The position numbers were made by a program, and so were the translations under genes. 64,000 nt of DNA from an uncultured Alphaproteobacteria bacterium (GTDB taxonomy: Bacteria > Pseudomonadota > Alphaproteobacteria > RF32 > CAG-239). Each line of letters opens with the position of its first letter. Position 1 is the stretch's first letter. The notes below the pieces were generated by a model, which ran no database searches, was not told where the DNA came from, and saw only the letters and a program-made list of their open reading frames with translations. This document shows, piece after piece, positions 1 to 23,870 of this stretch. The stretch covers positions 46,766 through 110,765 of the forward strand of contig CASFQO010000008.1 of NCBI GenBank assembly GCA_949297145.1. Direction: 5' to 3'.

Positions 1-1
1 A

Positions 2-232
2 TTGCCAAATTCTGCAAAAGATAAAAACATAGTAAGCCTTCAAGATGGATTAAAAGAAAGCACAACAGCAAAAGACGATTACTCAATTGGAGCGCAAATT
101 AATTATTACACAACCCAGCAAATATTAAGTATTGTTGATGCGGATGCACAAAATCAACAAACAGAAATCTTAAAAGATCTTGAAACTTTTAACTACAACT
201 ATTTTGGAAAGCAGGCTGAAGGAGAAAGCTAA
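2..232 (+). CDS. C-terminal fragment of a hypothetical protein; no recognizable motif; translationally coupled (TAATG) to the next gene
   Basis: Open frame runs off the window start; stop overlaps the next start codon. Confidence 0.3.
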   Translation: MPNSAKDKNIVSLQDGLKESTTAKDDYSIGAQINYYTTQQILSIVDADAQNQQTEILKDLETFNYNYFGKQAEGES

Positions 233-930
233 TGAAAAAGAAACTATGTATCCTCCTCTTTGTCTCATTAATATCATATACGCGTGAAGCATATGCGATA
301 TTTGATATTATGGCAAAAGTAGAATCAGCCATGGAATTGTACAAAGATGTAGAGAATAAAGTACAGGAAGTTCAGAAAAAAATAAGAGATATAGAAAAAA
401 GAGCAAGACAAGGTTTTGAAATGGCAAGCAACTGCTATAAAAATCCAACGAAATGTGATCCCAAAGCCTTAAAATCATTTGCAGAAGATTCTGAAAGTTA
501 TGTAACCAGTCTGACAGAAATTAAAGTTATGCCGGGAGCAGAAGAATTAAAAGAAGGCGATTTAAAGAAGAAAAGCGATAACAGTTTGGCTCAAACAGTA
601 GAAAATACCTATATTTATCAAAGGGGACAAGGAGAAGATATTGATAAAACAGAAGAAAATCGTCGCTACATAAATGCCATTGTAGCAGACGATACAGCGT
701 TACTATTTGCCAAAGGCGTTTCCGCACGTCAAAGCATATTGGTGGAAGATGGTTCGTTATATCAGGCAGAATTCAAAAATGAAAATATGGATGAAATCCT
801 AAATGCACAAAATGTAGTGGCCATTGCAACAGAGCAAAGATTGAATAGGGTATTGGAAATGAGAGCGTATATGACAAGTGCCGGAGCAACGGCTGAGCTA
901 ACTCAACAAACAAGAGAAGCAGATGAATAG
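232..930 (+). CDS. Secreted hypothetical protein with Sec signal peptide (MKKKLCILLFVSLISYTREAYA) and a mostly helical, charged body; possible VirB5/TrbJ-like T4SS periplasmic component
   Basis: Signal peptide with AYA cleavage motif; coiled-coil-like K/E-rich composition; first complete gene of the T4SS operon. Confidence 0.5.
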   Translation: MKKKLCILLFVSLISYTREAYAIFDIMAKVESAMELYKDVENKVQEVQKKIRDIEKRARQGFEMASNCYKNPTKCDPKALKSFAEDSESYVTSLTEIKVMPGAEELKEGDLKKKSDNSLAQTVENTYIYQRGQGEDIDKTEENRRYINAIVADDTALLFAKGVSARQSILVEDGSLYQAEFKNENMDEILNAQNVVAIATEQRLNRVLEMRAYMTSAGATAELTQQTREADE

Positions 931-939
931 GAGGAAATT

Positions 940-2298
940 ATGAAGAAAAAAACAGCAATCATCTGCCTAATAATAGGACTAGCAACAGGAAATGCAAATC
1001 CTGCCAATGCCTTAATTTTGGATGCTCCGACATTAGCTGCCAAAATCAGTGAGTGGGTAGGAAAAATAACCGATGCCACAACAAAAGTGACCCAGCAAGT
1101 ATCACAAGTAAAACAAATGACATCACAGGGCTTTAACAAAGAAGAACTCTTCAGCATAGCAGAAGAATACGCCTCAAGTTATGGAAAAGATTTACTCAAA
1201 ACCAAAATGAAAAAAATAGTGGATGGCACAAAAAAGAAAAACCGAGACAAGATGGAAACAGAAAAAGAAGCCTATGTAGAAGCTCAGAATGCTTACTATG
1301 AAGAAAAAATTGGGATAATGGATGATAGTATAAAAGAAACCGAGAATGCACGCAATGAAGCGCAAACCGCTCGTACACAAAAGCAAGCAGAGGTTGATCA
1401 AAAAAAAAGCTACTATGAAAGCGTCAAAGGAAATCTGTCGAAAGAACCAAAAGCATATGATGAGTATATGAAGGCACAGATGGAATATGACGAATTAGAT
1501 AAGACTTGCCAAGAATTTGATGTTCTGCTGGAAAATTTAGAAATGCAGAGAAGCGTATTGCAAGAAGAAAAAGCCAAAGTAGGGACTTCTGATGATCCTC
1601 AGTATGCATTATATGAAAAACGTCTGGAAGAAATGGATAAAGAAATAGAAGAGGCCGATGGAGAAGGAGGAAAAGAAGAAATTGTTAATAAATCAAGTGG
1701 TAATGAGGCTGAATGGGACGATGAAAACGTTGTGAAAGATTTCTCACCTACCGAGAAAGATTACACAGATTTTCTTGAGAGATATTTCTACAATCCAGAG
1801 GATTTGTCTGCAGCTGGAGGAGATGCGCGAATTGAACACCAAACAAAAATAGATGCTGTCACCAGAGAAAGAAGATTTTTGCTTGTAAACAGTGCGGCAC
1901 ACTTACTACAGGTATCAGCAACATTAAGAAGGGAGATTCCAGTACGTAGTGAAATTATAGATGAGATGTTTCAAAATACTCCTAAATCGACAGGAGAATT
2001 AGAGGCAATATCATCATATTCAGCCACAAGAATAGAAAATATGAAAGCATTGCTTATGTATGCGAAACTTCAAAGTGCAAGATTACAGTATATGTCTGCT
2101 AAACAATTGCTTAGCATAGACGCCATAAAAGTACCAAATGGAAATTATTCTGATTTTAATTTAGAAAAATACATCTTGACCAAAGAAGATGTGGATAAGG
2201 CAATAGAAGAAGCCAACACAGCAAACAGCGGTGTAACTTCTGTTGAAGATAATTATGAAGTAAATGCGGGAGACTACCAATGGTTAACAAACAACTAA
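940..2298 (+). CDS. Secreted coiled-coil protein (signal peptide MKKKTAIICLIIGLATGNANPANA), 452 aa; candidate VirB5/TrbJ-like component; contains an A9 homopolymer at 1400-1408
   Basis: Signal peptide; long E/K-rich heptad-like segments; 9-nt gap from previous gene; 19-nt overlap with next gene. Confidence 0.5.
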   Translation: MKKKTAIICLIIGLATGNANPANALILDAPTLAAKISEWVGKITDATTKVTQQVSQVKQMTSQGFNKEELFSIAEEYASSYGKDLLKTKMKKIVDGTKKKNRDKMETEKEAYVEAQNAYYEEKIGIMDDSIKETENARNEAQTARTQKQAEVDQKKSYYESVKGNLSKEPKAYDEYMKAQMEYDELDKTCQEFDVLLENLEMQRSVLQEEKAKVGTSDDPQYALYEKRLEEMDKEIEEADGEGGKEEIVNKSSGNEAEWDDENVVKDFSPTEKDYTDFLERYFYNPEDLSAAGGDARIEHQTKIDAVTRERRFLLVNSAAHLLQVSATLRREIPVRSEIIDEMFQNTPKSTGELEAISSYSATRIENMKALLMYAKLQSARLQYMSAKQLLSIDAIKVPNGNYSDFNLEKYILTKEDVDKAIEEANTANSGVTSVEDNYEVNAGDYQWLTNN

Positions 2299-5200
2299 GA
2301 GTGCTACAAAGCCTAATCCTAAGTGTATTAATCTTAGGTGCAGGAATACAAGAGGCCAAAGCGTTTTTGTTTTTGCCACCGATGCCATGGGATATTGAAG
2401 TAGATATTCCGGGCAATGCTAATAAAATTGTATCAAACATAAAAGCAGCATATCGTCAGGCACAAACCATAAAGTCTGAGCTCAACAGCCAAAAATTGGA
2501 GATTTTAAAGAAAGGACAAGCTTTCTTAAAAACGAAGTTCAATAAATATTCAGAAAAGGGCAAGAGCAAAGTTCCCGGAAAAGGGGCACTTCGCAACAGT
2601 GAGCTGTTAAATATCACCAAAGGTGGATTGGATGAAGAAGAGAACTTTAACGCATTTCATACTCTATTTTTCGTATATCCGGCTAAGAGTGAATATCCGG
2701 ATAACTATCCTGCAGTAAAACAAGCTTATAAAAGAAAGGCCAATGAGTATAAGCAAGATGTAATTATGGAAACATACTTAACAGGACGTGTTACAGAAAA
2801 TTATTTGGCGTTAGTTGAAAAGACCATTGAACGTTTGGATAATTGCCAAAAGGGAATGTATACAGAAGCTGAAATGGCCGAACATTGCGTGTTCTTTGGA
2901 TTACAAATGGCTTATGTAGAACCGGAAAAAGAAAATTTGGACAATGAAGGCAGTCCGGAAGATAGTACAAATCCAGGACAATATGGCGAAGTTATGAATG
3001 CCTATATTGTGACGACCGTATACGATAGATTAATGCGCATTGTAGAAGACCTGACAGGAACAGAAGCGCAATTTATATCAGCTATGCAAATTGATAGTGT
3101 AGACCCGATAGAACCCGAAGAGCAGAGTTCCGCAGAAGAGTATTTAGATAAAGGATATCGTTTTGTATATAATGACAATAAAGATTATGCTTTAGCAACA
3201 GGGACAATGCTCGGGGGAAATTATATCCGCAGCCAAGAATGTAAAAATGGTGGTAAAAATTGCCCAGATCAAAACGAAGATAGAACAACAATTAAGAACA
3301 CAGATGATACAGCAATTTTAGGAAAGCTCCAGCCGATTGAAGAACAGTTAAATCGTGCAATGGATTTACATAATCTGAAATCTCAATTAGCCGAATATAA
3401 AACTCAGTACAGAAAATACCTAAAATCAAAAGAAATACACGATAGAATGATGAAGGTGCTGGAAAAGAGTGACAGCAGCGTTGTCGACTTTTTAAATAGA
3501 TATAGCGATGGCAAAGGCTCAGAAATTTGGTATGGCGAGAGTAAACCGACCAAAGTTAACGATCACAGTAGCCGTGGAGGTTTATCAAAAGATGTCATTA
3601 TGGAATATCAGGAAGATACAACAGATAAACTGATAGGTACGTCTACAGGGGAGTGCGATGGATTCTATGAAAGCTGCCCAGACGGATATACACCAGGAGA
3701 ACCTTGCACATATACGGACAGTACAGGTAAAACTGTAACAAGCACAACAATGTTTGCATGCGTACTTGATACAGTAACATCAGATACAGAACCGGTAGAT
3801 AGTCCAAAAGTTTCCTATGAGCCAAAATTAGAAGAAGATTATAGTATTGCCGGTAGTAATAATACCAGAGAATACAATGAGACAGATTATCTTAAAAACG
3901 GCAATCAAGCCGATGAAATAGAAACAGATAATAGGATCAAAGCTGAAAAGAACTGGCGCATCGGTTATGACAAAATTATGAAATTAACCGAAGACGGTAC
4001 ATTAAAATTTAAACCATGGAACGATCAAAAGAATTTGCAATCAGAATACTTGCGCAACAAATACCGTAATATTCGCATGATAATCAAAACAGCCGATCAG
4101 GGGATGTTATCACAACGTGTTGCAAAAGTTTTAGCAGACGGAAACAACAACATTGGTCCAATTGAAGAAGTTTTACCAGCAGTATCTGCTTGCCAATTAA
4201 CAACGGATGCTACAAAAGGCGATGCCTTTGATAAAGCTTGTGAGGGATACGATTTAAACAAATCTTGTACAGGGAGCGGAGATGAAGCATCTTGCCATGC
4301 AGAAAAGAAGATATTATGTACATGCTATGACTCTGATGGAGATCCATATTCTTGTAGTAAAAAATTAACATGTAACATTAGTGGCAGCAATGACACAGGC
4401 ATAATAACTGGTTCTAGAGAAGAAACTTGTGCTAAAGTATCTGTTCCGATTAGATATAGTCAAACGATTAAAAATTTAACTGGAGGCTGCGATTTCACCA
4501 AAGCCGGAAGTGACTATACCGCCGTTGAAGATAAAAGCGGAAAATGCCCGGGAGAATGGGATTTGACCACCAAATTCCTTGTCAAAAGGTATATTCCGGG
4601 TGTAACAGCAAGCTGGAAGCATGAGGGAGGTTATGAAGGTACTTGCCCAACATCATTAGATGCACAAAATACACATCTATATGAAAATACTCACGCAGCC
4701 GGAAGAGTTGTTGCATCAGATCATTTCCAAGAACTTTTGGATTTGCGTAAACAAGTAGAAGCGAAATTGAAAGCTTTTATACAACAGTATGAAAACGATA
4801 TTAGCGCCTTAAAATCCGAGCTCCGCACAACAATAGCTCAACGGAGCGAATATGGGCAAAAACTAAGTGATGCCACGGATATTAAAAATGAGGCGGTTCA
4901 ACAGCGTCAACGCTCATTAAAACGTGTAGATGCAATCATCTCACAAATAGCAGAGTTGGAAAATCGTGTTGTTGAACTAAAAGCACGCTTGAACGAAAGA
5001 ACGCCAAAGCCGAAGAGCCTACAAAAAGAAATAGAGTCTTTAGAAATTGGTGCTGGTGAAGACTTAAATAAATTTGAAAAGCCGACATTAGCTCAACGAA
5101 TTGGGCAGATTCCGGCACTTCGAGAAGAATTAGCGTACATCTGCTACAATTCGCCAACTGATGAAGCGTACAAAGTATGTGCCCCATATAGAGCAACGGA

Positions 5201-7685
5201 AAATAAAGAAAATCCTTATGATGAAAACACACGTGATGATGATAAGTTTGATAAGATAGCTGATTTACATAAAGTAATCACTGCTAAAAACACGGAAATT
5301 GACAGTGCACAGTCTATGATGAAAATTCTGCAAGATAAAATAGATTCGCTAAATGAACAGTTGGAGAACACTGCAACAAAATTTGCAGAAGACTATATTC
5401 AAAAATCAGAAGAAGGCCAAGCAGAAATAGAAACAGCCAATAAAGTATTTGAAGATAAGCTCGAAACCAAGGAGGATGGCACTGAGCCAGACAGAATGGT
5501 TAGTGAAAACAGGGAATGGTGCAAACGTTATGGTCCAATAGGCCTAATCTGCAGAGAACACAGCAGTGAATACAAATATGACAATTTAGGTTGGACGATG
5601 GCCCGCGTAATGTTTGGCACAGGAAGCTCAAACAACGAAGGCGATGTTAAAGGTGAATTGCCAAACATTGTAAAAGATACCATTAACCAGCGTTGGTTCT
5701 CTAACAGCAGTTGGATTAATAATGCTGCTTCCAAACTAACACAAAAAGGTGGTGTTGTTAGAAAATTTGTGGTTGAAGGGGGAGTTTTAGCGCCCTACGG
5801 CATTCCTGATGGTCTATATACGCCAAGTCTTTTAGCCCAAAAAATAAAAGAAAAATCTGTAGAAGAAGCCAAGACCGCTTTGGCAGAAGGTGACTATGCA
5901 TACATTAACAAAGCAGATAAACTCGTCAAAGACGAAATAGATGCAGCGGTTAATAAAGTCACAGAGGTTATGGAAGAATGGGGCGTAACCGGAGAAGAGG
6001 GTAAAGAAGCAAATCCTGCAATTTATGAGCATGATAACTATGCTGCAGACGGAGCCACAGAAGGTGAGCAAGTCGTAACAGCAAGGCACTATCAGTTACT
6101 GGAAGACTTAAAGAAAGCTGTACATCAAAGTACACTTGATGCAGCAGAGATTGATTTACAACAAGTCTTTGGTATTCCTAATAATATTGTAACTGATGAT
6201 GACTATTTTGCAGCTCTACCGGCAAGAGGAAACTACAAGGGAACAGATACCTTTGTTCAGTTCGGGCGTGAAAATGGAAAATTCATCTTTGATGAAAATG
6301 ACGGCCGCGATTACCAAGCTCCAAGAAAACCATTATTAAATTTAGCTCCAGTAAGAGAAGTATTTTACTTCAGTGCATTGGATTATGATGATGTTCCGCA
6401 AAAAGACGGAAAACCATCATTGTCAGCACTGGTAGATTTAAAATATAAAGGTACGGAAAACGCCGTAGAATATTTGCCTGAAACTTGGAGATATTTATTG
6501 GCAACTCCAAACTTAAGACCAGGCACGGAAAAATATCAGCACACCTTTGTAGAACGAGCATTTGGAGTGGATAAACTAAAGAAATACCTGAATAATGAGG
6601 GAATAATCGGTGCAGAAGAATGGCACTATAGAACCATCATTGATCGAGCAGGCGTATATCCATGCAAACTAGGTGGCACAATAATAGATATTGCCGGCGG
6701 CGATAATGTGGGCGATATACAATTTAAGCGCCGCAGTTCAATGCCCGCAGGTATAACCAAGATTGAAAATTGCCAAGAAGTACTTGCATATAAAAGCGGT
6801 GTACGACACTTATTGGCAGACCACGATTCGAAAGATGACAGCAAATCTAAAGCTTTACAAGGAAGTTTAGGAAATACATCCGAACCAATGTACTCAAAGT
6901 ATAGCGAATTAGGACAATTCCTAAATGGTAACTTGCAATATCGTCCGTTGCTAAAAAATATTTATGACTATTTACTTGATGAAAACAATCAAGAAAATAA
7001 CATAGAGCGTCAACGTGCAGATACGGCAATCTTTAAGCGCAATATCATAGGCTCCTTCCTTGAAGCTGTAAACGCAGAGCATACGGCAGAAAAGTCTTTG
7101 GAACAAAACAAAGAAGATGCTATGGATACACTGAAAAACTTATGTACACAACTTCACAATTTTGGCGAGAGCGTCAATGGAGAAAGCTGTGCAGATAGTG
7201 AAGACAGTGAATGCTCTGAAGATATTGCAACAAGTTGTGCTGAATACATCATGGCAAATGGCGGATTAGCTAAAAATTCGGCAGATGATGTATATGATGT
7301 TGATTGTGCAAAATCAAATACCGGTTCATATTATGAAACTATATTCTGCAAACTTAACGACTTAAAAGATGAGGCTATTAAGAATGCAGAGAATGGTTAT
7401 AGCGATGAAAATGGTGAATACGAAGGATATAATGAAGTGAAAGGAATGACTGGAAACGAAAAGGTAGAAGAACGCAAACAGCAAATTGAAAACTACATAA
7501 CCGTTTTCACAGAAACAGATCCTGATGAAATATCTTACGTACAACCAAATGCAACACCGGAAGCAGTAGCCGAAGATGTGAAAGAAGCTCAAGCTAACCG
7601 CGAGGCATCATTAGATGCAACTGAAGAAGGTCTGGCATCTATGGATAATCAAAGTCAAGCGGTACCTTACGCACCGATATATTAA
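2280..7685 (+). CDS. Giant (1801 aa) secreted Cys-rich, coiled-coil, acidic protein of unknown function, at the position occupied by rvhB9-1 in Rickettsia T4SS loci
   Basis: Signal peptide MVNKQLRVLQSLILSVLILGAGIQEAKA; GGGAGA RBS 8 nt upstream; no TM segments; Cys-dense block approx aa 450-800; long coiled coils (e.g. QELLDLRKQVEAKLKAF...); acidic C-terminus. Confidence 0.55.
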   Translation: MVNKQLRVLQSLILSVLILGAGIQEAKAFLFLPPMPWDIEVDIPGNANKIVSNIKAAYRQAQTIKSELNSQKLEILKKGQAFLKTKFNKYSEKGKSKVPGKGALRNSELLNITKGGLDEEENFNAFHTLFFVYPAKSEYPDNYPAVKQAYKRKANEYKQDVIMETYLTGRVTENYLALVEKTIERLDNCQKGMYTEAEMAEHCVFFGLQMAYVEPEKENLDNEGSPEDSTNPGQYGEVMNAYIVTTVYDRLMRIVEDLTGTEAQFISAMQIDSVDPIEPEEQSSAEEYLDKGYRFVYNDNKDYALATGTMLGGNYIRSQECKNGGKNCPDQNEDRTTIKNTDDTAILGKLQPIEEQLNRAMDLHNLKSQLAEYKTQYRKYLKSKEIHDRMMKVLEKSDSSVVDFLNRYSDGKGSEIWYGESKPTKVNDHSSRGGLSKDVIMEYQEDTTDKLIGTSTGECDGFYESCPDGYTPGEPCTYTDSTGKTVTSTTMFACVLDTVTSDTEPVDSPKVSYEPKLEEDYSIAGSNNTREYNETDYLKNGNQADEIETDNRIKAEKNWRIGYDKIMKLTEDGTLKFKPWNDQKNLQSEYLRNKYRNIRMIIKTADQGMLSQRVAKVLADGNNNIGPIEEVLPAVSACQLTTDATKGDAFDKACEGYDLNKSCTGSGDEASCHAEKKILCTCYDSDGDPYSCSKKLTCNISGSNDTGIITGSREETCAKVSVPIRYSQTIKNLTGGCDFTKAGSDYTAVEDKSGKCPGEWDLTTKFLVKRYIPGVTASWKHEGGYEGTCPTSLDAQNTHLYENTHAAGRVVASDHFQELLDLRKQVEAKLKAFIQQYENDISALKSELRTTIAQRSEYGQKLSDATDIKNEAVQQRQRSLKRVDAIISQIAELENRVVELKARLNERTPKPKSLQKEIESLEIGAGEDLNKFEKPTLAQRIGQIPALREELAYICYNSPTDEAYKVCAPYRATENKENPYDENTRDDDKFDKIADLHKVITAKNTEIDSAQSMMKILQDKIDSLNEQLENTATKFAEDYIQKSEEGQAEIETANKVFEDKLETKEDGTEPDRMVSENREWCKRYGPIGLICREHSSEYKYDNLGWTMARVMFGTGSSNNEGDVKGELPNIVKDTINQRWFSNSSWINNAASKLTQKGGVVRKFVVEGGVLAPYGIPDGLYTPSLLAQKIKEKSVEEAKTALAEGDYAYINKADKLVKDEIDAAVNKVTEVMEEWGVTGEEGKEANPAIYEHDNYAADGATEGEQVVTARHYQLLEDLKKAVHQSTLDAAEIDLQQVFGIPNNIVTDDDYFAALPARGNYKGTDTFVQFGRENGKFIFDENDGRDYQAPRKPLLNLAPVREVFYFSALDYDDVPQKDGKPSLSALVDLKYKGTENAVEYLPETWRYLLATPNLRPGTEKYQHTFVERAFGVDKLKKYLNNEGIIGAEEWHYRTIIDRAGVYPCKLGGTIIDIAGGDNVGDIQFKRRSSMPAGITKIENCQEVLAYKSGVRHLLADHDSKDDSKSKALQGSLGNTSEPMYSKYSELGQFLNGNLQYRPLLKNIYDYLLDENNQENNIERQRADTAIFKRNIIGSFLEAVNAEHTAEKSLEQNKEDAMDTLKNLCTQLHNFGESVNGESCADSEDSECSEDIATSCAEYIMANGGLAKNSADDVYDVDCAKSNTGSYYETIFCKLNDLKDEAIKNAENGYSDENGEYEGYNEVKGMTGNEKVEERKQQIENYITVFTETDPDEISYVQPNATPEAVAEDVKEAQANREASLDATEEGLASMDNQSQAVPYAPIY

Positions 7686-7704
7686 AGAGGAAAAATAGCA
7701 AAGA

Positions 7705-8463
7705 ATGGTTAATTTAATAAATCAAAAAATACTTCGGATAACAGATAAAGGAAAACCCAAAGAAGCTCCGGCATTTATTACGGAAGATGTCATAGAAGTA
7801 AAACGTGCAAAATTGATTTATTACAAATGGATAAGTAGATTAATGGCGCTACTTGCAACCATCTCTTTGCTATATGGTGTTTGTGCAACATTATCAATAT
7901 TAAAGTTAGCGCCGGAAATAGTAATAGATCCGCAATTATTTGTACGCCTATCCGATTCTGAGTCTTTAGTCAAAAGGGAGAGAGTTGACCGTTGGATGGA
8001 GTCTCGTGAAAAGATGATGGTGAATTTCATGAAACAATATGTAGAGCTCCGAAACACCTACATCAAAGATGAAAAAGAAATGAATAACCGCTGGTTATGG
8101 GGAGGTCTTGTGTCATACCTATCAACCTATCCGGTATATAAAGAATTTGAAAAGGTCTTTCCTAAATTAAAAGAAGAAATGCAAGAAAAGGAAGCAAGTC
8201 GTTCTGTAGAAATTCTCTCAGTTGAGCGAACGGGCGGTGAAAACAGTAATACATGGAAAATAGAGTTTAAGACGTATGATTTTACTTTTAAGCAAAATAG
8301 ATTAAGCCGACGAGCAAGCGTGAAGCCGATTATAGAAGAGAGATTCTGGACTGCGAACATTCGTGGATATGTCGATCCAAACAGAAGAACGGCCTACAGA
8401 CGCCTTTTAAATCCATTAGGATTTGTCGTATACAGTTATTTTCAAAGTGAAATTGAGACTTAA
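7705..8463 (+). CDS. virB8: VirB8-like T4SS inner-membrane protein, paralog 1 (bitopic: N-terminal cytoplasmic tail, one TM, periplasmic NTF2-like domain)
   Basis: Single TM WISRLMALLATISLLYGVCATLSIL; size 252 aa; conserved C-terminal NPLGF-V-Y motif shared with the second copy. Confidence 0.7.
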   Translation: MVNLINQKILRITDKGKPKEAPAFITEDVIEVKRAKLIYYKWISRLMALLATISLLYGVCATLSILKLAPEIVIDPQLFVRLSDSESLVKRERVDRWMESREKMMVNFMKQYVELRNTYIKDEKEMNNRWLWGGLVSYLSTYPVYKEFEKVFPKLKEEMQEKEASRSVEILSVERTGGENSNTWKIEFKTYDFTFKQNRLSRRASVKPIIEERFWTANIRGYVDPNRRTAYRRLLNPLGFVVYSYFQSEIET

Positions 8464-8606
8464 AAATTTTTTAAGTATTGATAGAGTATAATACAGATAA
8501 AACAATTTAGCCTGTTGATAAGTCGCGCCAATTTGTTTTCTAGTTAGACTTTTAAAAATAAAAGTTTTAATTATAAATAGATGGAAAATTATTTAGAGGG
8601 TTAATC

Positions 8607-8798
8607 ATGTATTATAAAGCTTTAGTAATCGGTTTCGCTGTTCTAATATTGGCTGCATGTAATTTAGTCGGCAGCTATTATGAACCAGAACCTGTTGGTA
8701 TAGGTAAAGATGTATACGAATTGAAACTATCACCATGTGCTTGCATAGAGGTGGAATTACCAAAAACATTGCCGGATTGGTTCAAGGCAATCAGCTAA
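8607..8798 (+). CDS. virB7: Small (63 aa) lipoprotein, VirB7-like candidate, sandwiched between two virB8 paralogs
   Basis: Lipobox L-A-A-C at residues 15-18 (LILAACNL); AGAGGG RBS; size and position match rvhB7 of Rickettsiales. Confidence 0.5.
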   Translation: MYYKALVIGFAVLILAACNLVGSYYEPEPVGIGKDVYELKLSPCACIEVELPKTLPDWFKAIS

Positions 8799-8809
8799 GG
8801 TAAAAATCT

Positions 8810-9568
8810 ATGGTAGAGCAGCTATCCTCGGAAAATACAAAAAAACTTTTATTGGAAGGGCAAACTGGAGAAAAGCCTCGTCCTAAAATGGCGCGTCCTC
8901 ACAAAAGAGGTTCAGCGGATGTTATTGTCGAAAACGCAACAGAAAAAAGATATTTATGGACTGCCAGAGCTTTTGCTATTATCTTTGCGGTGAGCTTGTG
9001 TTGTAACTTAATCTTAACATACGTTGTATTTGCTATAATGCCACTCTATCGTATAGAGCCGTATTTGTTTAGTTTTGCAGAGAAAAAAGATCAAATCTAT
9101 ACAATCCATCCGGTTAAAAATATTTATGAGTATAAATACTTAACGGAAATCTTTATAAGAGAATATGTTTTATTACGTAATACCTTTGTTAACGACGTTA
9201 ATGAGATGGAACAACGTTGGGGGACAGGAAGCACTATTCAAGAAATGTCATCCCCAGGGGTTTATAGTAAATTTAAAGAGGAATTTGCTGATAAGGCAAT
9301 TGATTTAATTAGAAATCACAATATTACACGCAACATTAAAATCGCCTCAGTAACAGAAGTTGGTGGTAAAAATGGTGAAATGTGGTGGCAGGTAGAGTTT
9401 AGAGTTGAAGATATGATGCCCGAATTTGAAACACCGAGGTTAAGTGTGTGGTTGGCATCTGTCAAAATACAATATAGGGCCAAAAGGGTAACTTTTGGAG
9501 AAAGATTAAAAAATCCATTAGGGTTTACGGTACTTGATTATAAACAAGTAGAGAGAAAAACAAACTGA
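8810..9568 (+). CDS. virB8: VirB8-like T4SS inner-membrane protein, paralog 2
   Basis: TM AFAIIFAVSLCCNLILTYVVFAI; C-terminal motif RLKNPLGFTVLDY parallel to paralog 1. Confidence 0.7.
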   Translation: MVEQLSSENTKKLLLEGQTGEKPRPKMARPHKRGSADVIVENATEKRYLWTARAFAIIFAVSLCCNLILTYVVFAIMPLYRIEPYLFSFAEKKDQIYTIHPVKNIYEYKYLTEIFIREYVLLRNTFVNDVNEMEQRWGTGSTIQEMSSPGVYSKFKEEFADKAIDLIRNHNITRNIKIASVTEVGGKNGEMWWQVEFRVEDMMPEFETPRLSVWLASVKIQYRAKRVTFGERLKNPLGFTVLDYKQVERKTN

Positions 9569-9587
9569 TTGGGTGTAGGATAATTAG

Positions 9588-11546
9588 ATGATGAAAAAAG
9601 TGAACATATTATCTGTAATGTTGGTATATTTGGGGATGCTAATGGCATCAGCTCAAGCTCAAGTGACAAAAGATAATCTGGATCAAAATGCAGATCAGAG
9701 TCAAGGAAACTATGCCGCAACCAATTTAAATTATTTAGGAGGTGTAGGGTCCTTAGGTATGATGCAAAGTGCATGGAAAGATCCTTTACAGCATATGGGA
9801 GAAGGACAAACTCGTCCAGGTTATACAAAATATTATTGGACACCAGAACTTGTCTTGCCTGTCAGAGTTAGAGAAGGTATGTATACCCTAATAAATTTTC
9901 CAAACTGGGAAGTGATTGAAAATGTCTACATAGGTGATGGACAATCATTTAATGCGGAAATACAAGGTCCATCAAGTTTGATGGTTTATCCTGATTCTTC
10001 GCAGTTTGTTGGTGTAGATACTAATATGATTGTCTTTGGTCGTTCTGGAAATAAATATGTTTTTTATGTTCAAAGTGAAACAGTTAATACAGATAGAATT
10101 ACAAATGCTATAATAGATATTGAAGTTGTGAAAAAAAGACAAAATGTTTCTGGTGCGTCAGCTATGGGGATAGGCACCGGAGGCGGTAATGGGCATATCA
10201 ATGCAAATACTTATGGGCAGAATGGAAGTAGTGTAGATGCAACATTTACAAGAGATTTACAAAAGGAAGACTGGATTGAAAAAATTCCGGTAGACCCGAC
10301 ACAGTTTCGTTTTGATATAGAAGTATATGTTCCCAATCCCGATGACATTGTTATAGCTCCAGAACGTGTTTGGAGAGATAATATTTTCACGTATATTGAT
10401 TTAGGAGATAAAGCGCTGACAGCAAACCAACGACCGATTGTAACTTTAATCGTAGAACGTTCAGAAACACCCGTTGGTTTTAGAACAGCAGGCCCAAATA
10501 ATCGTCTCATTATTGTAGAAGGCATGGGAGATATGGTTTTGCGTAGCGGAAAAAGAATTGTTTGCTTAAAATTAAGGCGCGCAGATTCGGATGGTTTGGA
10601 AAATACAGTTTATGCGAAGACAAATGAGTGGGATTTACAAGCTCAGCGCTACCAAAATCAGTCTTCAAGTACAGGAGAACCTGCTGAAAATTATGAAGAT
10701 GTTTATGGAAAAGAAACATCAGCTGATAATAAAAAAGATTCTTTCTTTGGTATTAATTCATTCTTTGGACCATCAGAAACTGCAACATCCTCGAAAGCAG
10801 AAACAGACAGTGGTATGAGCTATGAAGATATGATCAGTGGAAAACAATCTACGACGCCGCAAAACGAGGTTAAGTCCGAACCAAAAGAAAATAACCAAAA
10901 CAAGGTATCAGAGCCGTCAACTACAGATAAAGAAGCTTTGATAAATTCGATTCCAAAAGCGAAAACATATGTGGCTACACCGAATTCGGCTCCAAGTACG
11001 CCAGAATTGACAGGCCAATATGATGTAAATGCAAATGGAGCAGAATTAGTAACGCCTCAGTATGGTAATAAAAAAGAGGATACCATAACATACCAAAAGG
11101 ATGAACAACAAAGCTTGCAAAATTCTAACGTTGCTCCAAAACTTGGTAATTCTAGCAATAACTCTAGTCCTGTTTTGATTACACCAAAGGATGAAAATTT
11201 GGCCAAACAGAACTCTTTGGTTTCTGCGGAAACAGAAGCTCTCTTGAAAGAATTCAGGGACGGAAAGGTTTTTGAAAATACAGATGAAAGTAATATTTCT
11301 ATAGAATTAGGAACAGATAAAGACGTAAATAATCTGGAAAAATTATGGAATGATATTTCTAAAAATTACTCAGCAACATTGGGTAGATATCAACCATTTT
11401 ATTCTGTAGATACACCGGCAGACGGTCAAGGAAAAGAGGTCTTTCACCTGCGAGTAGGACCTGTAAAATCTCTGGAAGAAGGAGATAATATTTGCAGCCA
11501 ATTAGGGCGTAATGGAATATTTTGTAGTGTGGTTAGAATACAATGA
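9588..11546 (+). CDS. virB9: VirB9-like T4SS outer-membrane core protein, extended by a ~250-aa S/T/N/Q-rich low-complexity linker and a C-terminal SPOR-like peptidoglycan-binding domain
   Basis: Signal peptide MMKKVNILSVMLVYLGMLMASAQA; VirB9/TrbG/CagX-like beta-rich core approx aa 75-330 (…RFDIEVYVPNPDDIVIAPERVW…IVCLKLR); C-terminus …FHLRVGPVKSLEEGDNICSQLGRNGIFCSVVRI matches the SPOR consensus. Confidence 0.75.
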   Translation: MMKKVNILSVMLVYLGMLMASAQAQVTKDNLDQNADQSQGNYAATNLNYLGGVGSLGMMQSAWKDPLQHMGEGQTRPGYTKYYWTPELVLPVRVREGMYTLINFPNWEVIENVYIGDGQSFNAEIQGPSSLMVYPDSSQFVGVDTNMIVFGRSGNKYVFYVQSETVNTDRITNAIIDIEVVKKRQNVSGASAMGIGTGGGNGHINANTYGQNGSSVDATFTRDLQKEDWIEKIPVDPTQFRFDIEVYVPNPDDIVIAPERVWRDNIFTYIDLGDKALTANQRPIVTLIVERSETPVGFRTAGPNNRLIIVEGMGDMVLRSGKRIVCLKLRRADSDGLENTVYAKTNEWDLQAQRYQNQSSSTGEPAENYEDVYGKETSADNKKDSFFGINSFFGPSETATSSKAETDSGMSYEDMISGKQSTTPQNEVKSEPKENNQNKVSEPSTTDKEALINSIPKAKTYVATPNSAPSTPELTGQYDVNANGAELVTPQYGNKKEDTITYQKDEQQSLQNSNVAPKLGNSSNNSSPVLITPKDENLAKQNSLVSAETEALLKEFRDGKVFENTDESNISIELGTDKDVNNLEKLWNDISKNYSATLGRYQPFYSVDTPADGQGKEVFHLRVGPVKSLEEGDNICSQLGRNGIFCSVVRIQ

Positions 11547-14500
11547 GCGAGAATACTCGGTTTGAAGAATATGAGAGAAAAACCCGTAAGATAATTTTCA
11601 TCATAGGAATTATCGCGTTCTTTTTCTTTCTGTTTGGACTATTAGTAATATCATCAGAGACTGAGGTCTACAATCCGGAAGAAGCTACCCCTGACTTTGT
11701 AGAAAATCAAAACATACTACCTGAAATAACAACAGATACAGGGCCTATATTTGTTGACACAGAAGCCACAACAGGAGAAAGTAAAAATAAACCCATAAAA
11801 GTTACACCTGCACAGATAAATATGAATAAATTTATTTTAGGTGTAGATACGCAAAACCAAAGTGTTCTAACAATTGGAACAGATGGTAGTGAAAGTATTC
11901 ATATAGAACGTGTTGAATTGGTGGAAGAAACTGAAGACGGATTTGAATTTCGTGATAAATGCAGAAACAGAGATTTGCGAGGAGATGAAACATGTAACGT
12001 CTTGATCACCTGGGTTCCACATCTTCCGGGTAACGTGCAGAATAATTTTAAAATAATATGGTACGAGACGCGCTTGGATAAATCAAGTGCAAAATCTGAA
12101 GAGGTGAGCATTAAAGGGAGTGCAGTTTATCCTGAGGACAACCAACAAAATTGTCCACCAGGAAGCGGTTGCGCAATTGGCGAAGGAGAAAGTACTGGTG
12201 CACATCGATTAGCAATAGGACCTAATGGAGAAATAATAGGATATATAGACGAAGCAGGAAATGTACACGATAATGAGGGAAATATTATCGGTCGTGTCAA
12301 TGAAGACGGATTGATTGTCGATTCTGACGGCAATATTATTGGTGTAGCCCAAAATATGAAGTTAGCTTATGATAAAGATGGTAATATAATCGGATATGTA
12401 AAAACGGACGGAACAGTTGTTGATCTGCAAGGTGAAGTAATCGGAAAAGCATTACCAGATGGTACGATTGTTAACAGCAAAGGAGAAATCATCGGCAAAG
12501 CTGTTGAAGCAGGATTTGTATATGATAAAAATGGCAAAATTATAGGTCGCGTGCTACCGGATGGAACAGTTGTCGATATAAATGACCCCAAGAAAATCAT
12601 CGGTCGACTAAATGAAAATGGTGAGGTTGTAGACGAAAACGGCAATGTAATAGGCAAAGTTACCTCAGCTGGGAACATCGTTGTAGATGAAAATGGTAAT
12701 GTATTAGGTGTTGTTATGCCAGATAATAGCGTTGTAGACCAAGATGGCAATATTGTTGGCTATGTTGACGAAAATGGCAATGTTTACAAACTTGCAAAGG
12801 AAAAAATCGGCACAAATGGAGAAAGTCGGAAAATCGTGTATGACAAAGATGGTAAAGCCATCGGTTATATCGATGAAAATGGCAAAGTTGTTAAATTTGC
12901 AAAAGATAGCAATAAACCGGAAATAATTGGAAAAGTTGGGGCTAGCCGCCGGTTAGCCTATGATAAGAATGGCAATGTAATCGGCTATGTAGATAAAGAT
13001 GGTACAGTAAAGGATTTTAAGGGAAATACAATAGGCAAAGTCGATAAAGACGGAAATATAATAGATAAAAACGGCAATAAGATAGGCAAGGCCGGGGCTT
13101 TTGGTAAGTTGGCATTGGATAAAAACGGAAAAGTCATAGGGTATATTGATGACCAAGGCCGCGTATTTGACCATAATGGAAAGCATATCGGCAATGTCGA
13201 TAAAAATGGTAACATTGTAAAATTAGCTGAAAATGGCAATAAAGGGGAAGTAATAGGAAAATCTGGAGAAAGTCGCAGATTGGCCTTTGATAAAAATGGT
13301 AACGTTATCGGATACGTAGATAAAGATGGCACGGTAAAAGATTTTAAGGGAAACACAATAGGCAAAGTCGATAAAGATGGAAATATAATAGATAAAAACG
13401 GTAATAAGATAGGAAAAGTGAGCTCATATGGTAGATTAGCACTAGATGAAAATGGAAAAGTCATAGGGTATATTGATGACCAAGGCCGTGTATTTGACCA
13501 TAACGGGAAACAGATCGGTAACGTTGATAAAGATGGAAATATAATAGATAAAAATGGTAATAAAATTGGGAAATCAGGAGAAAGTCGAGAGTTGGCTTAT
13601 GATAAGAATGGCAATGTAATCGGCTATGTAGATAAAGATGGTACAGTAAAAGATTTTAAGGGAAATACAATAGGCAAAGTCGATAAAGACGGAAATATAA
13701 TAGATAAAAACGGCAATAAGATAGGCAAGGCTGGGGCTTTTGGTAAGTTGGCATTGGATAAAAACGGAAAAGTCATAGGGTATATTGATGACCAAGGCCG
13801 CGTATTTGACCATAATGGAAAGCATATCGGCAATGTCGATAAAAATGGTAATATCATTAGCACGCAACAGAAGAATGTAGCTGGAGAAAAAAAGAGGATA
13901 GCCTTAGGGAAAGACGGTAAGCCAATAGGGTATATAGATGATGATGGAAATGTTATAGATTTTGATGGAAATATCATAGGAAAGGTTAATGACAAAGGGG
14001 AAATTATAGGCAAGAATGGGCAAAAAATTGGTACTGCAGGAAATTATGAAACAGTTGCATATGATAAAAATGGCAAAGTAATAGGTTTCGTCGATGATAA
14101 AGGTCGTGTTGTTGGTAAAAATGGCAAATTACTTGGTTATGTTGACGACAAAGGGCAAATTATAGGGACAACAGGCGAGATAATTGGTAAAGTAGGAACA
14201 TCAAGAGAAATAGCCTATGATAACAATGGAAAATTTATCGGCTATGTAGACCAAGATGGCTCTGTGAAAGGCTGTGGTGGAGCAGTAATTGGTAAAAAAG
14301 ATAGTTCTGGAAATGTTATAGATAAAAATGGTAAAATTATCGGCAAAGTAGGTGGAATAAAAGAGTTAGCCTTTAATAATGAAGGAATTTTTATTGGCTA
14401 TATAGATGAAAAAAAACGAGTCATAGATTGTGAAGGCACAGCAATAGGTGTTGTGGATAAAAATGGTAATATTATAGCATCAAGTGGAGAAACGTTAGGA

Positions 14501-17500
14501 ACCGCAGGAACGTTTAAGCGCTTAGCCTATGATAAAAATGGAAAAGTCATTGGTTACGTAACGCCAGATGGTACAGTAAAAGATTTTAAGGGTAACTTGA
14601 TTGGACGTATGACTGAAGATGGAACGATTCTTGATAAAAATGGTCGTGTGATTGGTAAAGCTGGAGATTACAAACAGGTAGCGACAGACAAAAATGGTAA
14701 TGTTATCGGCTATGTGGATGAAAATGGTCGTGTTATAGATGAAAATGGCAAACTGATAGGCTTTATAGACAATGAAGGTAATGTCATTAAAGCAGGAACA
14801 AAGGTAATAGGTAGAACTTGTATTAAAAGAAAAATTATAAAAAACAAAAAGGGAAATATAATCGGATATCTGGATAAAAATAACATTGTAAAAAATTTTA
14901 GCAATAAAGTGCTTGGCACAAATAAAAATGGAGACATTCTAGATAATAAGGAATTGCTAATAGGTACGGTAAGCGAACTCCAAAATGTTGTACAAAAGGA
15001 AGCTGGAAATATCATAGGGTATTTAGATGCAAAAAACTATGTTAGAGGCGATGAAAATAAAATAATAGGAATTGTAGATGTAAAGGGAGACGTTTTAGCT
15101 GCAAAAGAAAATATAATTGGAAAATTAGACACAGATAGAAAAACCCTGAAAGACAATGGTAATAATATTATAGGCTACATGAAAGAGAATAATTTTGCTT
15201 TCAGTACTGATAATAAGCTAATGGGCTATGTAACGGAAGATAATGAAGTGAAAGCCGTTGGAGAAGTGATCTGTACTGCATGCAAAAGTGTCAAGTTGGC
15301 ATATGATGAAAATGGTAATATATTAGGATATATCGATGAAAATGGCAATGTAATAGATGAAAATGGTAAGATTGTCGGCAAGGTAGATGAAAACGGCAAT
15401 GTGATAAATGAAAACGGAAAAATTATCGGAAAAGTCGGAGATGCCCAAAATTTGGCCTATGATAAAGATGGAAAACTTATAGGATTCGTAGATAAGGACG
15501 GAAAAGTAAAAGATTTTAAGGGAAATGTAATAGGATATGTCGATGAAAATGGAAATATTCTTGAGAATACGAATGAAATAATAGGCAGTGTTGGAAAAAA
15601 TGGTAAATTAGCCTATGATAAAAATGGAAAAGTCATTGGTTACGTCGATAAAGATGGTAATGTCCGTGACTTTAAAGGCAATTTAATCGGAAAAGCTACA
15701 AAAGATGGTAAAATAATAGATCAGTATGGCCGTGAAATAGGAAAAGTTGGTGATACTAAAACATTAGCACTGGATAAAAATGGAAATGTAATAGGCTATG
15801 TCGGTGAAGATGGAAAGGTCTACGGTGAAAAAGGAGATTTGATAGGATTTCTGGATAATGACGGTAATGTTGTTGGTTTAACCGATGAAGTACTAGGCAA
15901 AGCCTCTACAAATCGTCAATTAGCACTTGATAAAAATGGAAATGTAATAGGATACATAGATGAAGACGGTACTGTTCGTGATTTTGAAGGAAAGCTGCTA
16001 GGGTATTTAGGCGAAGATGGAAGTATAAACGATATAAATGGCAATATTATTGGAAAAGCGGGCGATTATGCAAAAGTTGTTCTCGATAAGAATGGTAACA
16101 TAATAGGTTACACAGATGAACAAGGAAAAGTAATTGGAAATAATGGAAAAGTCATTGGTTTTGTAGGAGAAGATGGCAATGTTTATGGAAGCAGTGGTGA
16201 AGTTATTGGCCGACTAGCCGAAAAAGGGGAGGGAGATCTCAAGGTAATCAGTAGAAAATCAGTAATGGATGAAAAAGGTAATATAATTGGTTACATAGAT
16301 GAGAATGGTCTGGCTCGAGATTTTGATGGCAACATTCTGGGAACTCTTCAAGAAGATGGAAGCATTAAAGATAGCAAAGGAAATATAATAGGTCGAGCAG
16401 GAGATAATATTGATTTAACAGTAGATGGAAACGGAAAAATTGTTGGTCGAGTAGGTGATTATTCAAATTTAGCAATTGATGATGAAGGGAACGTTATTGG
16501 TTATATTGGTAACGATGGAAAAGTTTATGATGCAAATGGAATTGTCATTGGCTATATAGATGAAAACGGTAATGTCATTAGTACTAGGGGAATAAGAATT
16601 GGAACAGTTGTTAAAAAGGATATGATAGCTATATCACCAGCAGGATACAGTCTGGGGATTATTAACAATCGAGGTGAAGTTACTAACAATAAAGAGGAAG
16701 TTATCGGCAAAATATTACCAAATTCATTAATAAAAGCAACTGAAGGCGATCAAATAATCGGTAAAACAGTTATCGGAGGAATGGCTATAGGCTGGGGCTG
16801 CCAACATTACGGATATGTAGACAGAGATGCAAGAGTGAAAAAAAATGGAAAAGACACCGGATATAAAATGCTATTTGACAGAACAATTGTAGACAAAGAT
16901 GGCAATTATGTTGGAGATATAGCAAAAGTTGGAGCTGTGCGCGATGAAAAGTGTAACATTATTGGAAAAGCTGAATATGACGGTTATGTAAGAAACGATG
17001 CCGGAGATTATGTCGGTTGTGTAAACCCAGATGGAGGTGTGCTTGATCAAGATGGAAAACTTATAGGAAAGGTCTTTGAACCAGGATATGCACTATATTA
17101 TAGCGGAGAAATGATGGGAATAGTCAATCAAAATGGTTCAATAACATCCGGAACACAAGCTATTGGATGTACGAATTTTGATGGAGAAGTATTAAATAAA
17201 GATGGATTTGTCATTGGACAGGTAATGGATAAAACTCAAGCGTTTGATATTGAAGGGAATTTTATTGATAACCTATCAACATTTAAGTATGATAATACGG
17301 AAATCTTGCCTAATACGAAGATATTATTTAATAAATTCATAGTTAATCCGAAATTGGAAATAAAAGGAATTATATTGCCAGAGAGAAATGTTGTCATAAA
17401 TTCGGATGGAGACGTTATAGGACATCTGTTTGCAGATGGGTATATTTATAATCAAAAGGGAATTGCTGTTGATAAAATAGCATATGAAGGAAGAGCTTTT

Positions 17501-18463: not shown

Positions 18464-18464
18464 G

Positions 18465-22820: not shown

Positions 22821-22889
22821 AAAAGAACAGATTGACGAAGGTTAAGATGTTTGCTAAGATAAGACATAAGGAAATTTGGGAGTGTATAA

Positions 22890-23870
22890 ATGGGAAAGCT
22901 TGAGGATGAAGTTCTTTGCTCTGTATTAAGACCATTATCATATTGGTATGATCAGGAGAATATAGAAGAAGTCGCTATAAATCATCCTGGCGATATATGG
23001 CTGCGCTTGCGCGGCAAAAGAGCCTTTCCATGGGTGAACTATAAGGATCCTAAATTAACCAGAGAATATTTGACAAATTTACTGCATATAATAGCAAATT
23101 TAAATGATCAAGAGTTTGATCCGATAAATGGTTCACCGGTTGTTTACGCCAGAATTCCTGGAGGACATCGTTTTACAGGTATCGCCGGAAAAAATATTGA
23201 GTATGATTTAGATGATGCCGCGACTGGAGGAATAGCGATAGCGATACGTTTGCATTCGGATGATGTAGCATTTGGCTTTGGAGATTATGGCTTGGAGCAG
23301 GGGAAAAAATTAAAAGAGATTAATCCCTTAAAGCATATCAAAGATCCTGATGATGCGTATGAAAGGTTGCTGCTGGCATTACGCCGTGGAGACCATATCC
23401 TAGTGAGTGGTGGTACAGGAACTGGTAAAACGACATTATTAAACAACTTGCTAAAACTTCTGGATATACATAAAAGAGTAATAACGGTGGAGGATACGCG
23501 AGAACTTAATGTGCCGCAACCAAATCATGTACATATTGTTTTATCGCGTACAGAGCAGACGAATACGATGGATTATTCCAAAGTAATTGACTTGATTGTA
23601 CGTTTTACTCCAGATGCAATCATCGGCGGAGAAATTTCTACAAGTAATGCGGGAGCAATTTGGGAATTGATGGGATCAGGACACGATAACTGCCTAGCCA
23701 CAATACACGCAGAGAGCTCGACCGCCGCCTATGAAGCATTTGTAAAACGTATTATGAGAACACAGCCGAACATAGATGTTGAAAAAACGATAGAAGAGAT
23801 GCGTCGCAAACTTCACGTTGTGCAAATCGTAAGAGACGGCAATATTCGTGGAATTACAGAAATAACTTAA
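22890..23870 (+). CDS. virB11: VirB11 T4SS traffic ATPase
   Basis: Walker A VSGGTGTGKTT; 326 aa; VirB11/CpaF-like N- and C-terminal domains. Confidence 0.88.
   Translation: MGKLEDEVLCSVLRPLSYWYDQENIEEVAINHPGDIWLRLRGKRAFPWVNYKDPKLTREYLTNLLHIIANLNDQEFDPINGSPVVYARIPGGHRFTGIAGKNIEYDLDDAATGGIAIAIRLHSDDVAFGFGDYGLEQGKKLKEINPLKHIKDPDDAYERLLLALRRGDHILVSGGTGTGKTTLLNNLLKLLDIHKRVITVEDTRELNVPQPNHVHIVLSRTEQTNTMDYSKVIDLIVRFTPDAIIGGEISTSNAGAIWELMGSGHDNCLATIHAESSTAAYEAFVKRIMRTQPNIDVEKTIEEMRRKLHVVQIVRDGNIRGITEIT

Follow-up and report, generated by a model that had tools for sequence, protein, structure and literature searches.

The question raised by this locus is what a secreted protein of 1801 amino acids (aa) does among the genes of a type IV secretion system (T4SS). 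The protein, called BIG throughout this work, is encoded at 2280..7685 of the window, the whole stretch of 64,000 nucleotides (nt) analysed, which spans positions 46,766 to 110,765 of contig CASFQO010000008.1 (assembly GCA_949297145.1) of an uncultured alphaproteobacterium (RF32; CAG-239). A sequence-only reading had portrayed BIG as a secreted, cysteine-rich, coiled-coil protein at the head of a T4SS operon, conceivably an adhesin, a tip protein or an added piece of the outer-membrane core. Judged from homologs and gene neighbourhoods, BIG is a dedicated, non-membrane component, exported by Sec, of an enlarged, rvh-like T4SS, and founds a superfamily which has escaped annotation. Cysteine covariation and the pattern of conservation make us lean towards an accessory subunit in which a conserved docking base would carry a variable projecting arm.

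BIG is a real gene, subject to purifying selection along its whole length, as indicated by the existence of full-length homologs and by the ratio of nonsynonymous to synonymous substitution rates (dN/dS). In the comparison with the ortholog of locus L005 (91% identical), this ratio is 0.05 for the entire gene, with a dS of 0.9. In pairwise comparisons dN is highest in the variable module described below, where the ratio is 0.09-0.15, and dN/dS stays below 0.15 everywhere. The open reading frame (ORF) is complete, opens with ATG, and is preceded at 7 nt by GGGAG. The signal peptide and the lack of transmembrane (TM) helices noticed earlier were both confirmed. The sole hydrophobic stretch covers aa 5-30 and includes a signal-peptidase I site (A26-K-A28/F29), whose neighbouring residues are invariant or nearly so across homologs (F29 invariant, A28 conserved in at least 90%). 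No internal TM helix was found in BIG; among 166 superfamily proteins, no more than 4 show even a single internal hydrophobic peak, and none is polytopic. The tail is acidic, as had been claimed, with 45 D+E versus 14 K+R at aa 1601-1801.

The gene resides in the middle of its operon. It seemed to be at the head only because the window starts inside the operon. Contigs carrying homologs 74% and 30% identical to BIG show, upstream and on the same strand, virB2 (in two or three copies), virB3 and virB4, followed by four genes for secreted proteins, p397, p731, p232 and p452. Downstream of BIG the order is virB8, virB7, virB8, virB9, a gene for a second giant, virB10 and virB11. The start of BIG falls inside the preceding ORF (19-nt overlap), and 19 nt separate its stop from the next gene. 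Promoter-like and terminator-like sites are not more numerous than in shuffled sequences. Since starts overlap or abut, and these counts do not exceed the shuffles, the notion of a separate transcription, which would loosen the tie to the T4SS, is without support. A BIG homolog lies just upstream of virB8 in each of the 41 loci whose downstream sequence could be read. The 31 species-level loci (31 of 31) contain the T4SS genes that their length allows, as monitored by tblastn, and the gene order is the same wherever the flank is long enough; T4SS genes are likewise present on the contigs of the homologs P0005 and P0054. In nine loci hosting distant relatives (L035, L037-L043) the homolog directly precedes virB8-virB7-virB8-virB9; those extending further include the second giant and, where reached, virB10. 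A gene for a VirB5-like protein, p232 and p452 usually precede BIG. In no examined locus was a BIG homolog found outside the T4SS genes, in line with a dedication to the T4SS.

A word-indexed search retrieved 55 homologs, 30-91% identical to BIG and nearly all full-length, none of which has a domain match or an informative name. An exhaustive HMMER search, carried out with a profile of the N-terminal part only (aa 25-800), recovered 211 representatives of 50%-identity clusters (170 at E <= 1e-10), including distant relatives, over 100 in number and roughly 1050-1850 aa long. The shortest family member has 917 aa, the longest 2028. The distant relatives tested are all without Pfam domain or informative name, every name recovered being "hypothetical protein", and a homology search seeded with a 922-aa relative retrieved only itself. 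The 31 loci found by scanning species-representative genomes all reside in metagenome-assembled genomes (MAGs) of uncultured Alphaproteobacteria, mostly from gut or rumen samples according to the record titles. The label of one record reads "uncultured Rickettsiales". Public assemblies contain more than 1000 sequences of one single-species cluster. No other gene of the operon diverges as fast as BIG. In the most distant of the loci first compared BIG is 29% identical, VirB4 87%, VirB8 and VirB9 62-65%, and VirB2 51-53%.

Searches of Pfam, NCBIfam and PDB sequences with BIG, as a single sequence and as a profile, returned nothing beyond coiled-coil noise at aa ~790-1050. The sole structural or sequence matches are to the antiparallel coiled coils of SMC/Rad50 proteins in that interval (best E 2e-4), and NCBIfam SMC matches at 817-1052. 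AlphaFold2 models were obtained for two separate halves of the protein, with predicted local distance difference test (pLDDT) values of 69 and 76 and predicted template modelling (pTM) scores of 0.37 and 0.45. Searches with Foldseek of both halves against PDB, and of the C-terminal half against BFVD, gave no match at E < 0.001. Solved T4SS components have no sequence or Foldseek similarity to BIG, and domain searches detected no recognisable enzymatic or toxin domain. A catalytic interpretation of a HLLADH stretch was dropped, as the stretch is not conserved among distant relatives. No description of the BIG family or of its T4SS type was found in the searchable literature, and nothing relevant emerged on T4SSs of RF32 or CAG-239, beta-flower T4SSs or DUF4141. 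Accessory subunits of T4SSs are a kind of protein already known; the BIG family, its putative clasp architecture and the system carrying it are new.

Cysteines are the key to the architecture proposed. BIG has 32, half of which (16) fall within aa 459-789, at a density of 4.8%; outside this interval cysteines make up 1.1% of BIG, and in the other long ORFs of the window 1.0%. The cysteine-dense block reported earlier therefore exists, but not the many C-x-C and C-x2-C pairs attributed to it, as CxC occurs once (680-682) and CxxC never. Neither do WxxY-rich stretches, since BIG has 13 Trp and no W..Y motif. The block is specific to a subclade, because about half of its cysteines (663-692, 717, 789) are found in just ~25-35% of the homologs. 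The median number of cysteines is 33.5 in the BIG-proper clade versus 10 in distant relatives, which carry 4-22. Totals are even in 30 of 35 homologs.

Two cysteines far apart in the chain covary. At positions 400 and 1798 co-occurrence is complete in 67 close relatives (phi 1.0). Over the superfamily both are present in 135 sequences and both absent in 17, while 7 retain the core cysteine only and 1 the C-terminal cysteine only (Fisher p 2e-16); the C-termini of the 7 are all aberrant or truncated, which leaves 1 truly discordant sequence. The two residues have been lost together in several lineages, and the replacing residues differ. Position 400 (nt 3477-3479) is Cys in 88% of the relatives, and position 1798 (nt 7671-7673) in most of them, close to a terminal Tyr (Y1801) 99% conserved; the window protein has Ser400 and Ala1798, and belongs to a subclade which lost both cysteines. 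The covariation implies that a segment of the best-conserved block of the protein, the N-core, touches the extreme C-terminus, and that a putative Cys400-Cys1798 disulfide ancestrally clasped the N-core to the C-domain. With such a contact the chain would fold back, and the region from aa ~610 to ~1340 would be an excursion from a conserved base. Further covarying cysteine pairs are 638/737, 682/692 and 1676/1690.

The modules of BIG are listed in the table below. In the family alignment conservation is high at aa 100-450, 551-600 and 1351-1600, and reaches its minimum, with a maximum of indels, at aa 651-750 and 901-1000. The N-core is marked by LHNLK-QL-YKTQYRKYLKAKEIH..., by a CxGYYExCPxGY hairpin, and by WRIG...F-PWNDQK-LQ-EYLRNKYRNI. 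Residues of the C-domain near-invariant in the whole superfamily include D1344, P1348, R1359, E1360, D1368, P1400, W1403, L1407, E1425, R1456, P1461, C1462, D1470, C1498, E1543, N1588, G1591 and E1600. Hallmarks of the superfamily are the signal peptide, the lack of TM helices, the block LHNLK...YK.QY..Y... in the N-core, the signature R-E-[VI]-F, P-x-x-W-x-Y-x-L and P-C in the C-domain, and [YF]-C-x-x-Y at the C-terminus. The window protein has all of them, with the exception of the cysteine pair 400/1798; it shares Ser and Ala at these positions with the seven relatives closest to it. The C-terminal Tyr was considered as part of an outer-membrane beta-signal; this was rejected, because prolines occupy positions -3 and -6 and hydrophobic residues do not alternate.

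In the predicted models the mature N-terminus is disordered, N-module and N-core are helical, and a hairpin bearing a disulfide is seen at 471-495. Long beta strands follow at 662-727, then the two helices 812-906 and 993-1059, the arms (~95 and ~67 residues) of a coiled-coil hairpin, and a C-domain of alpha/beta and helical parts. The long coiled coils recognised from the sequence alone are thus borne out by the models as well as by the SMC matches. The apex of the hairpin (aa 906-992) is hypervariable, and holds Cys955 and Cys967. The beta module (aa 611-800) has the lowest conservation and most indels.

The view of the middle as an excursion agrees with three observations. The 917-aa homolog P0056 retains N-core, C-domain and a YCPIY terminus, and lacks aa ~600-1340, that is aa 611-1059 plus the helical region 1060-1339. 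The lengths in the family span 917-2028 aa. Locus L037 encodes the N-module as a secreted protein in its own right (L037_8567, 462 aa), which matches positions 12-269 of the profile at E 2.4e-12; what is left of BIG there is a second protein, P0057 (1245 aa), likewise with a signal peptide. The two L037 genes (8567..9955 and 10001..13738) reflect a gene fission or fusion, the portion equivalent to the N-module being aa ~36-293. We infer that beta module, coiled coil and helical region make up a variable insertion. Variation among strains was monitored in three 90%-identity clusters, a small sample of 14 full-length sequences each. Variable patches correspond in one species to aa 451-610 and 1101-1339, in another to the apex of the coiled coil (aa 906-992, where 44% of the columns vary), in the third to the Cys-rich module 611-800 (36% variable columns), which is a hot spot there, and to the tail. 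In the sampled clusters aa 101-450 and 1340-1600 are almost invariant. This patchy variation, located mostly in the excursion, fits an arm that would be exposed and prone to interactions.

According to the reading we favour, N-core (aa 345-610) and C-domain with the C-terminus (aa 1340-1801) would form a single base, ancestrally stapled by the Cys400-Cys1798 disulfide, both cysteines of which were lost in the subclade of the window. The base would dock on the secretion machine. The insertion would project from it as beta module, coiled-coil hairpin and helical region, and its variable surface, at the distal end, could contact a target or a partner in the envelope; the arm may be located either at the cell surface or in the periplasm. 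The logic would be that of TraN of the F plasmid, without homology. Several considerations weigh against this scheme. To our knowledge there is no route by which a folded, disulfide-bonded protein of 200 kDa crosses the outer membrane. The AlphaFold2 models, being of separate halves and of moderate confidence, cannot show a contact of N-core and C-domain. The window copy lacks both clasp cysteines, so that the disulfide is proposed for its relatives. Even the variable module has a low dN/dS (0.09-0.15), which lends no support to diversifying selection. Finally, virB6, virD4 and virB1 were found neither in the operon (window 1..23870) nor elsewhere in the 64-kb window; without virB6 and virD4 the machine serving as docking site would itself be of atypical architecture.

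Modules of BIG and neighbouring genes, with positions in the window unless another locus is named
Feature	Positions	Strand	Remarks
p731-family gene, 3' end	1..232		in locus L001, 4502..7952 holds p397/p731
p232, secreted, 232 aa	232..930	+	signal peptide, no Pfam match; co-conserved
p452, secreted, 452 aa	940..2298	+	no Pfam match; co-conserved
BIG, complete ORF	2280..7685	+	1801 aa plus stop, ATG start
BIG, signal peptide, aa 1-28	2280..2363	+	n-region K4/R7, hydrophobic core 8-22, cleavage A26-K-A28/F29
BIG, N-module, aa 29-290	2364..3149	+	mature N-terminus F-x3-PPMPWDIEVDIPGNA-K-VSN conserved, helices after; invariant Cys189/Cys203
BIG, N-core, aa 345-610	3312..4109	+	best-conserved superfamily block; core profile positions 320-423
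BIG, Cys-rich variable beta module, aa 611-800	4110..4679	+	predicted long strands 662-727, 12 Cys
BIG, antiparallel coiled-coil hairpin, aa 812-1059	4713..5456	+	predicted helices 812-906 and 993-1059
BIG, helical region, aa 1060-1339	5457..6296	+	moderate conservation
BIG, conserved C-domain, aa 1340-1700	6297..7379	+	alpha/beta plus helices; no fold match
BIG, acidic tail and C-terminal signature	7380..7682	+	...MDNQSQ-V-P-Y-[C]-P-x-Y
virB8, divergent copy	7705..8463	+	Pfam; no PDB match; 19 nt downstream of BIG
virB7-like lipoprotein, 63 aa	8607..8798	+	LILAAC lipobox, SPCAC motif
virB8, canonical copy	8810..9568	+	Pfam
virB9, 652 aa	9588..11546	+	CagX domain (4e-14) plus C-terminal SPOR
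Second giant, 2306 aa	11543..18463	+	one N-terminal TM helix, aa 17-35; dozens of Bflower/Bflower_2/DUF3659 repeats
virB10, 1451 aa	18465..22820	+	TTG start; Bflower repeats ahead of TrbI domain

The SPOR domain of VirB9, a peptidoglycan-binding domain, is just at the Pfam cut-off (E 3.6e-4). The slot between virB9 and virB10 is occupied, in every related locus reaching there, by a counterpart of the second giant, 1138-2367 aa long, which likewise has the N-terminal TM helix and a conserved C-terminus, ...AGY.L.EVA.NRRN; the GC skew is 0.37-0.43 across the gene (11543..18463). The Bflower insertion ahead of the TrbI domain of VirB10 is found also in distant loci. The operon ends at virB11, and engB, yidC, recF, dnaN and dnaA follow on the other strand; the T4SS operon is therefore chromosomal, and close to the replication origin. 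Elsewhere in the window, two tandem lipoprotein-like ORFs of 260 aa (41492..42274 and 42348..43130, plus strand) are 90% identical, have an internal duplication each, and no Pfam match.

The proteins encoded between virB4 and virB8 all have a signal peptide, and none has a TM helix. Five secreted families share a hydrophobic-P-x-x-D motif directly after an A-x-A cleavage site, followed by an amphipathic helix. Orthologs of p232 and p452 are present even in distant loci. p397 and p731 are paralogous (E 6e-42). In a T4SS of a Microvirga plasmid, the protein at the VirB5 position is matched by the p397 profile (E 6e-6), and a relative of the p397/p731 family matches DUF4141; p397/p731 is therefore the VirB5-like component of the system. 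The Microvirga system (L036; Microvirga sp. VF16, plasmid pMVF16-3, NZ_CP069357.1, 671088..686254) has the closest plasmid VirB4, 36% identical, versus ~24% for the other plasmid VirB4s in the spread sample listed. This compact T4SS includes virD4, a small protein with 3-4 TM helices, a VirB5-like protein of canonical type and a VirB7 lipoprotein (SPCAC motif) homologous to that of the BIG loci; it has no BIG homolog. A tblastn search of plasmids with a VirB5-like protein gave no match.

BIG itself was compared by hhalign with p397, p731, p232 and p452. Only the first 50-65 columns align, signal peptide included, with 2-55% probability. After removal of the signal peptides BIG and p397 still align in register over ~30 residues, with E 3.6e-4 and a sub-threshold probability of 37% (E 0.08 for a reversed control). 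BIG has no similarity to the VirB5-position proteins of Microvirga, and no match to VirB5 in Pfam or to TraC, TrwJ and CagL in PDB-sequence and Foldseek searches. The hypothesis that the five secreted proteins are paralogs forming a VirB5 hetero-pentamer was rejected, as such genes number 4 to 6 between lineages. Paralogy of BIG and VirB9 was rejected too; against an alignment of 30 VirB9 sequences hhalign assigned 3.4% probability, only the signal peptides being aligned. The statement of the sequence-only reading that BIG lacks a VirB9 signature holds, no match to CagX/VirB9 being found in Pfam or NCBIfam (PF03524, TIGR02781).

The scheme of base and arm has to be set against other ways of placing BIG in the machine. 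Ranked second, and in our opinion possible although doubtful, is a protein which never leaves the periplasm, a scaffold or accessory of the outer-membrane core functionally akin to Cag3/CagM or to the Dot/Icm ring proteins. BIG would in this case help to build an enlarged core along with the SPOR-bearing VirB9, the bitopic giant of 2306 aa and the VirB10 of 1451 aa. The machine is indeed expanded as a whole, counting the 652-aa VirB9 with SPOR, the 2306-aa giant and the 1451-aa VirB10 with Bflower repeats, and, wherever an examined locus extends downstream, the BIG gene adjoins virB8-virB7-virB8-virB9. A periplasmic protein could equally well have paired cysteines and a signal peptide, low dN/dS fits a structural role, and an export route across the outer membrane is not evident. 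Yet, a part with a fixed span should keep its length, and members of the family vary between 917 and 2028 aa by gain or loss of the whole insertion. Variation among strains is concentrated in patches of the insertion (44% at the apex in one 90%-identity cluster), as is typical of exposed parts, and BIG evolves faster than any other gene of the operon, again a pattern commoner in exposed parts. Moreover, BIG has no homology to known core-complex proteins; the relation to Cag3 and CagM suggested at the outset found no Pfam or PDB match.

The motif shared by the five secreted proteins, a hydrophobic residue, Pro-x-x-Asp and an amphipathic helix after the cleavage site, invites the idea of BIG as a minor pilin or tip protein of the VirB5 type that has grown to great size, inserted by its N-terminus in the stalk or tip, the rest being an adhesin. 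[quoted passage not shown] The alignment of the BIG N-terminus with the p397 family (E 3.6e-4 at 37% probability, versus E 0.08 for the reversed control), and the ability of the N-module to stand as a separate secreted protein, speak for such an origin. We hold it to be improbable, as the operon already has VirB5-like proteins in p397/p731, the likeness is limited to ~30 residues at sub-threshold probability, and Microvirga proteins, Pfam VirB5 and TraC/TrwJ/CagL all fail to match BIG; with 4 to 6 genes per locus, a fixed hetero-pentamer is without support. Least credible of all appears a role as a toxin or other substrate which Sec would deliver to the periplasm for assembly, and which the T4SS would then export, as Ptl does with pertussis toxin; BIG might in this case act together with p232 and p452. 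Pertussis toxin is a multi-subunit, Sec-exported protein. The several secreted proteins encoded together recall it; signal peptide and paired cysteines are compatible with such a fate, as is the absence of the coupling-protein gene virD4 from operon and window. Ptl lacks VirB5 (PMC2653234). However, all lineages examined have BIG inside the structural block, after the virB4/virB5-like genes and before virB8, and the order is conserved and starts overlap. Effectors, as a rule, differ between genomes in both presence and location. N-core and C-domain are conserved across more than 200 clusters and look like surfaces interacting with the machine, no enzymatic or toxin domain is recognisable, and size and disulfides make passage through a T4SS channel unlikely.

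A bolder extension of the favoured base-and-arm reading can be put forward, to which we give little credence. BIG, p232, p452 and the VirB5-like proteins may form a so far unseen sub-assembly, extracellular or trans-periplasmic, replacing stalk and tip in a T4SS related to rvh, the operon of which lacks virB6 and virD4, with the arm as the determinant of specificity for the contacted cell. If so, the arm would let gut Alphaproteobacteria choose the cells that they contact, be these bacterial, protist or host. Regardless of this, BIG is the signature of a widespread, undescribed T4SS type (at least 211 protein clusters), carried by Alphaproteobacteria which lack both cultured representatives and a known lifestyle. 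The putative clasp disulfide and the division into base and arm provide concrete hypotheses, and BIG a marker gene for metagenomes.

Among known systems, TraN, the mating-pair stabilisation protein of F-like conjugative plasmids, offers the closest parallel in architecture. The C-terminal part of TraN folds back on the N-terminal part, its conserved cysteines, about 20 or more, all appear paired, and a variable central tip selects the outer-membrane protein of the recipient (PMC9246713). Like TraN, BIG is predicted to be exported by Sec, is encoded among T4SS genes, and would combine a conserved base with a variable centre, its putative disulfides being suggested by covariation and even cysteine counts. 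The comparison with TraN drawn in the sequence-only reading is apt for the proposed architecture (base, variable projection, cysteines apparently paired) but not for descent, as BIG has no Pfam, NCBIfam, PDB or fold match. BIG is three times longer, and in place of a beta sandwich its arm would consist of a beta module and a coiled-coil hairpin. The system of BIG is P-type and rvh-like, that of TraN F-type, and a cysteine content as high as that of TraN is found only in the BIG-proper clade (median 33.5), not in distant relatives (median 10).

With VirB5, TrbJ, TraC and CagL BIG shares Sec export, the non-membrane nature and a gene located between virB4 and virB8, and with the VirB5-like proteins of its own operon the motif at the mature N-terminus. 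In contrast to proteins of this type, it has no Pfam match, is ~8 times longer, and the likeness ends after ~30 N-terminal residues. In Helicobacter, CagH, CagI and CagL are adjacent secreted proteins sharing a terminal motif, and the arrangement of the BIG region recalls them. Cag3/CagM and the Dot/Icm ring proteins are similarly lineage-specific, have a signal peptide and no TM helix, and enlarge a T4SS beyond the VirB set; they are not homologous to BIG, which is much larger and varies in length through a removable insertion. It is through lineage-specific accessory subunits that the VirB machine, generic in itself, becomes a specialised device, Cag and Dot/Icm being examples; every new set of such subunits has brought new architecture to light. 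The matches to SMC and Rad50 are consistent with an intramolecular antiparallel coiled-coil hairpin with a cysteine-bearing apex in BIG; their E-values are marginal, they reflect coiled-coil composition and not homology, and an ATPase head is missing from BIG.

The rvh system differs from the one described here in several respects. Its hallmarks are duplicated RvhB4 and RvhB9, multicopy RvhB6, the lack of a VirB5 analog, and RvhD4 located after RvhB11 (PMC11077975). BIG loci have one virB4, one virB9 and VirB5-like genes, and at the level of the locus neither the operon nor the window includes a polytopic VirB6-like gene or virD4. The order of genes is nonetheless strikingly close. In R. typhi it is rvhB9-I, rvhB8-II, rvhB7, rvhB8-I, rvhB9-II, B10, B11 (PMC4676284), and BIG occupies the slot of rvhB9-I, as the sequence-only reading had noticed. 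A duplicated virB8 flanks virB7, and virB9, virB10 and virB11 follow; in the window, as in R. typhi, the first virB8 copy is divergent, the second canonical. The virB8-virB7-virB8 arrangement, regarded as a hallmark of Rickettsiales rvh, is found here in MAGs not classified as Rickettsiales. Because it shares this otherwise Rickettsiales-only arrangement, the system marked by BIG bears on the origin of rvh.

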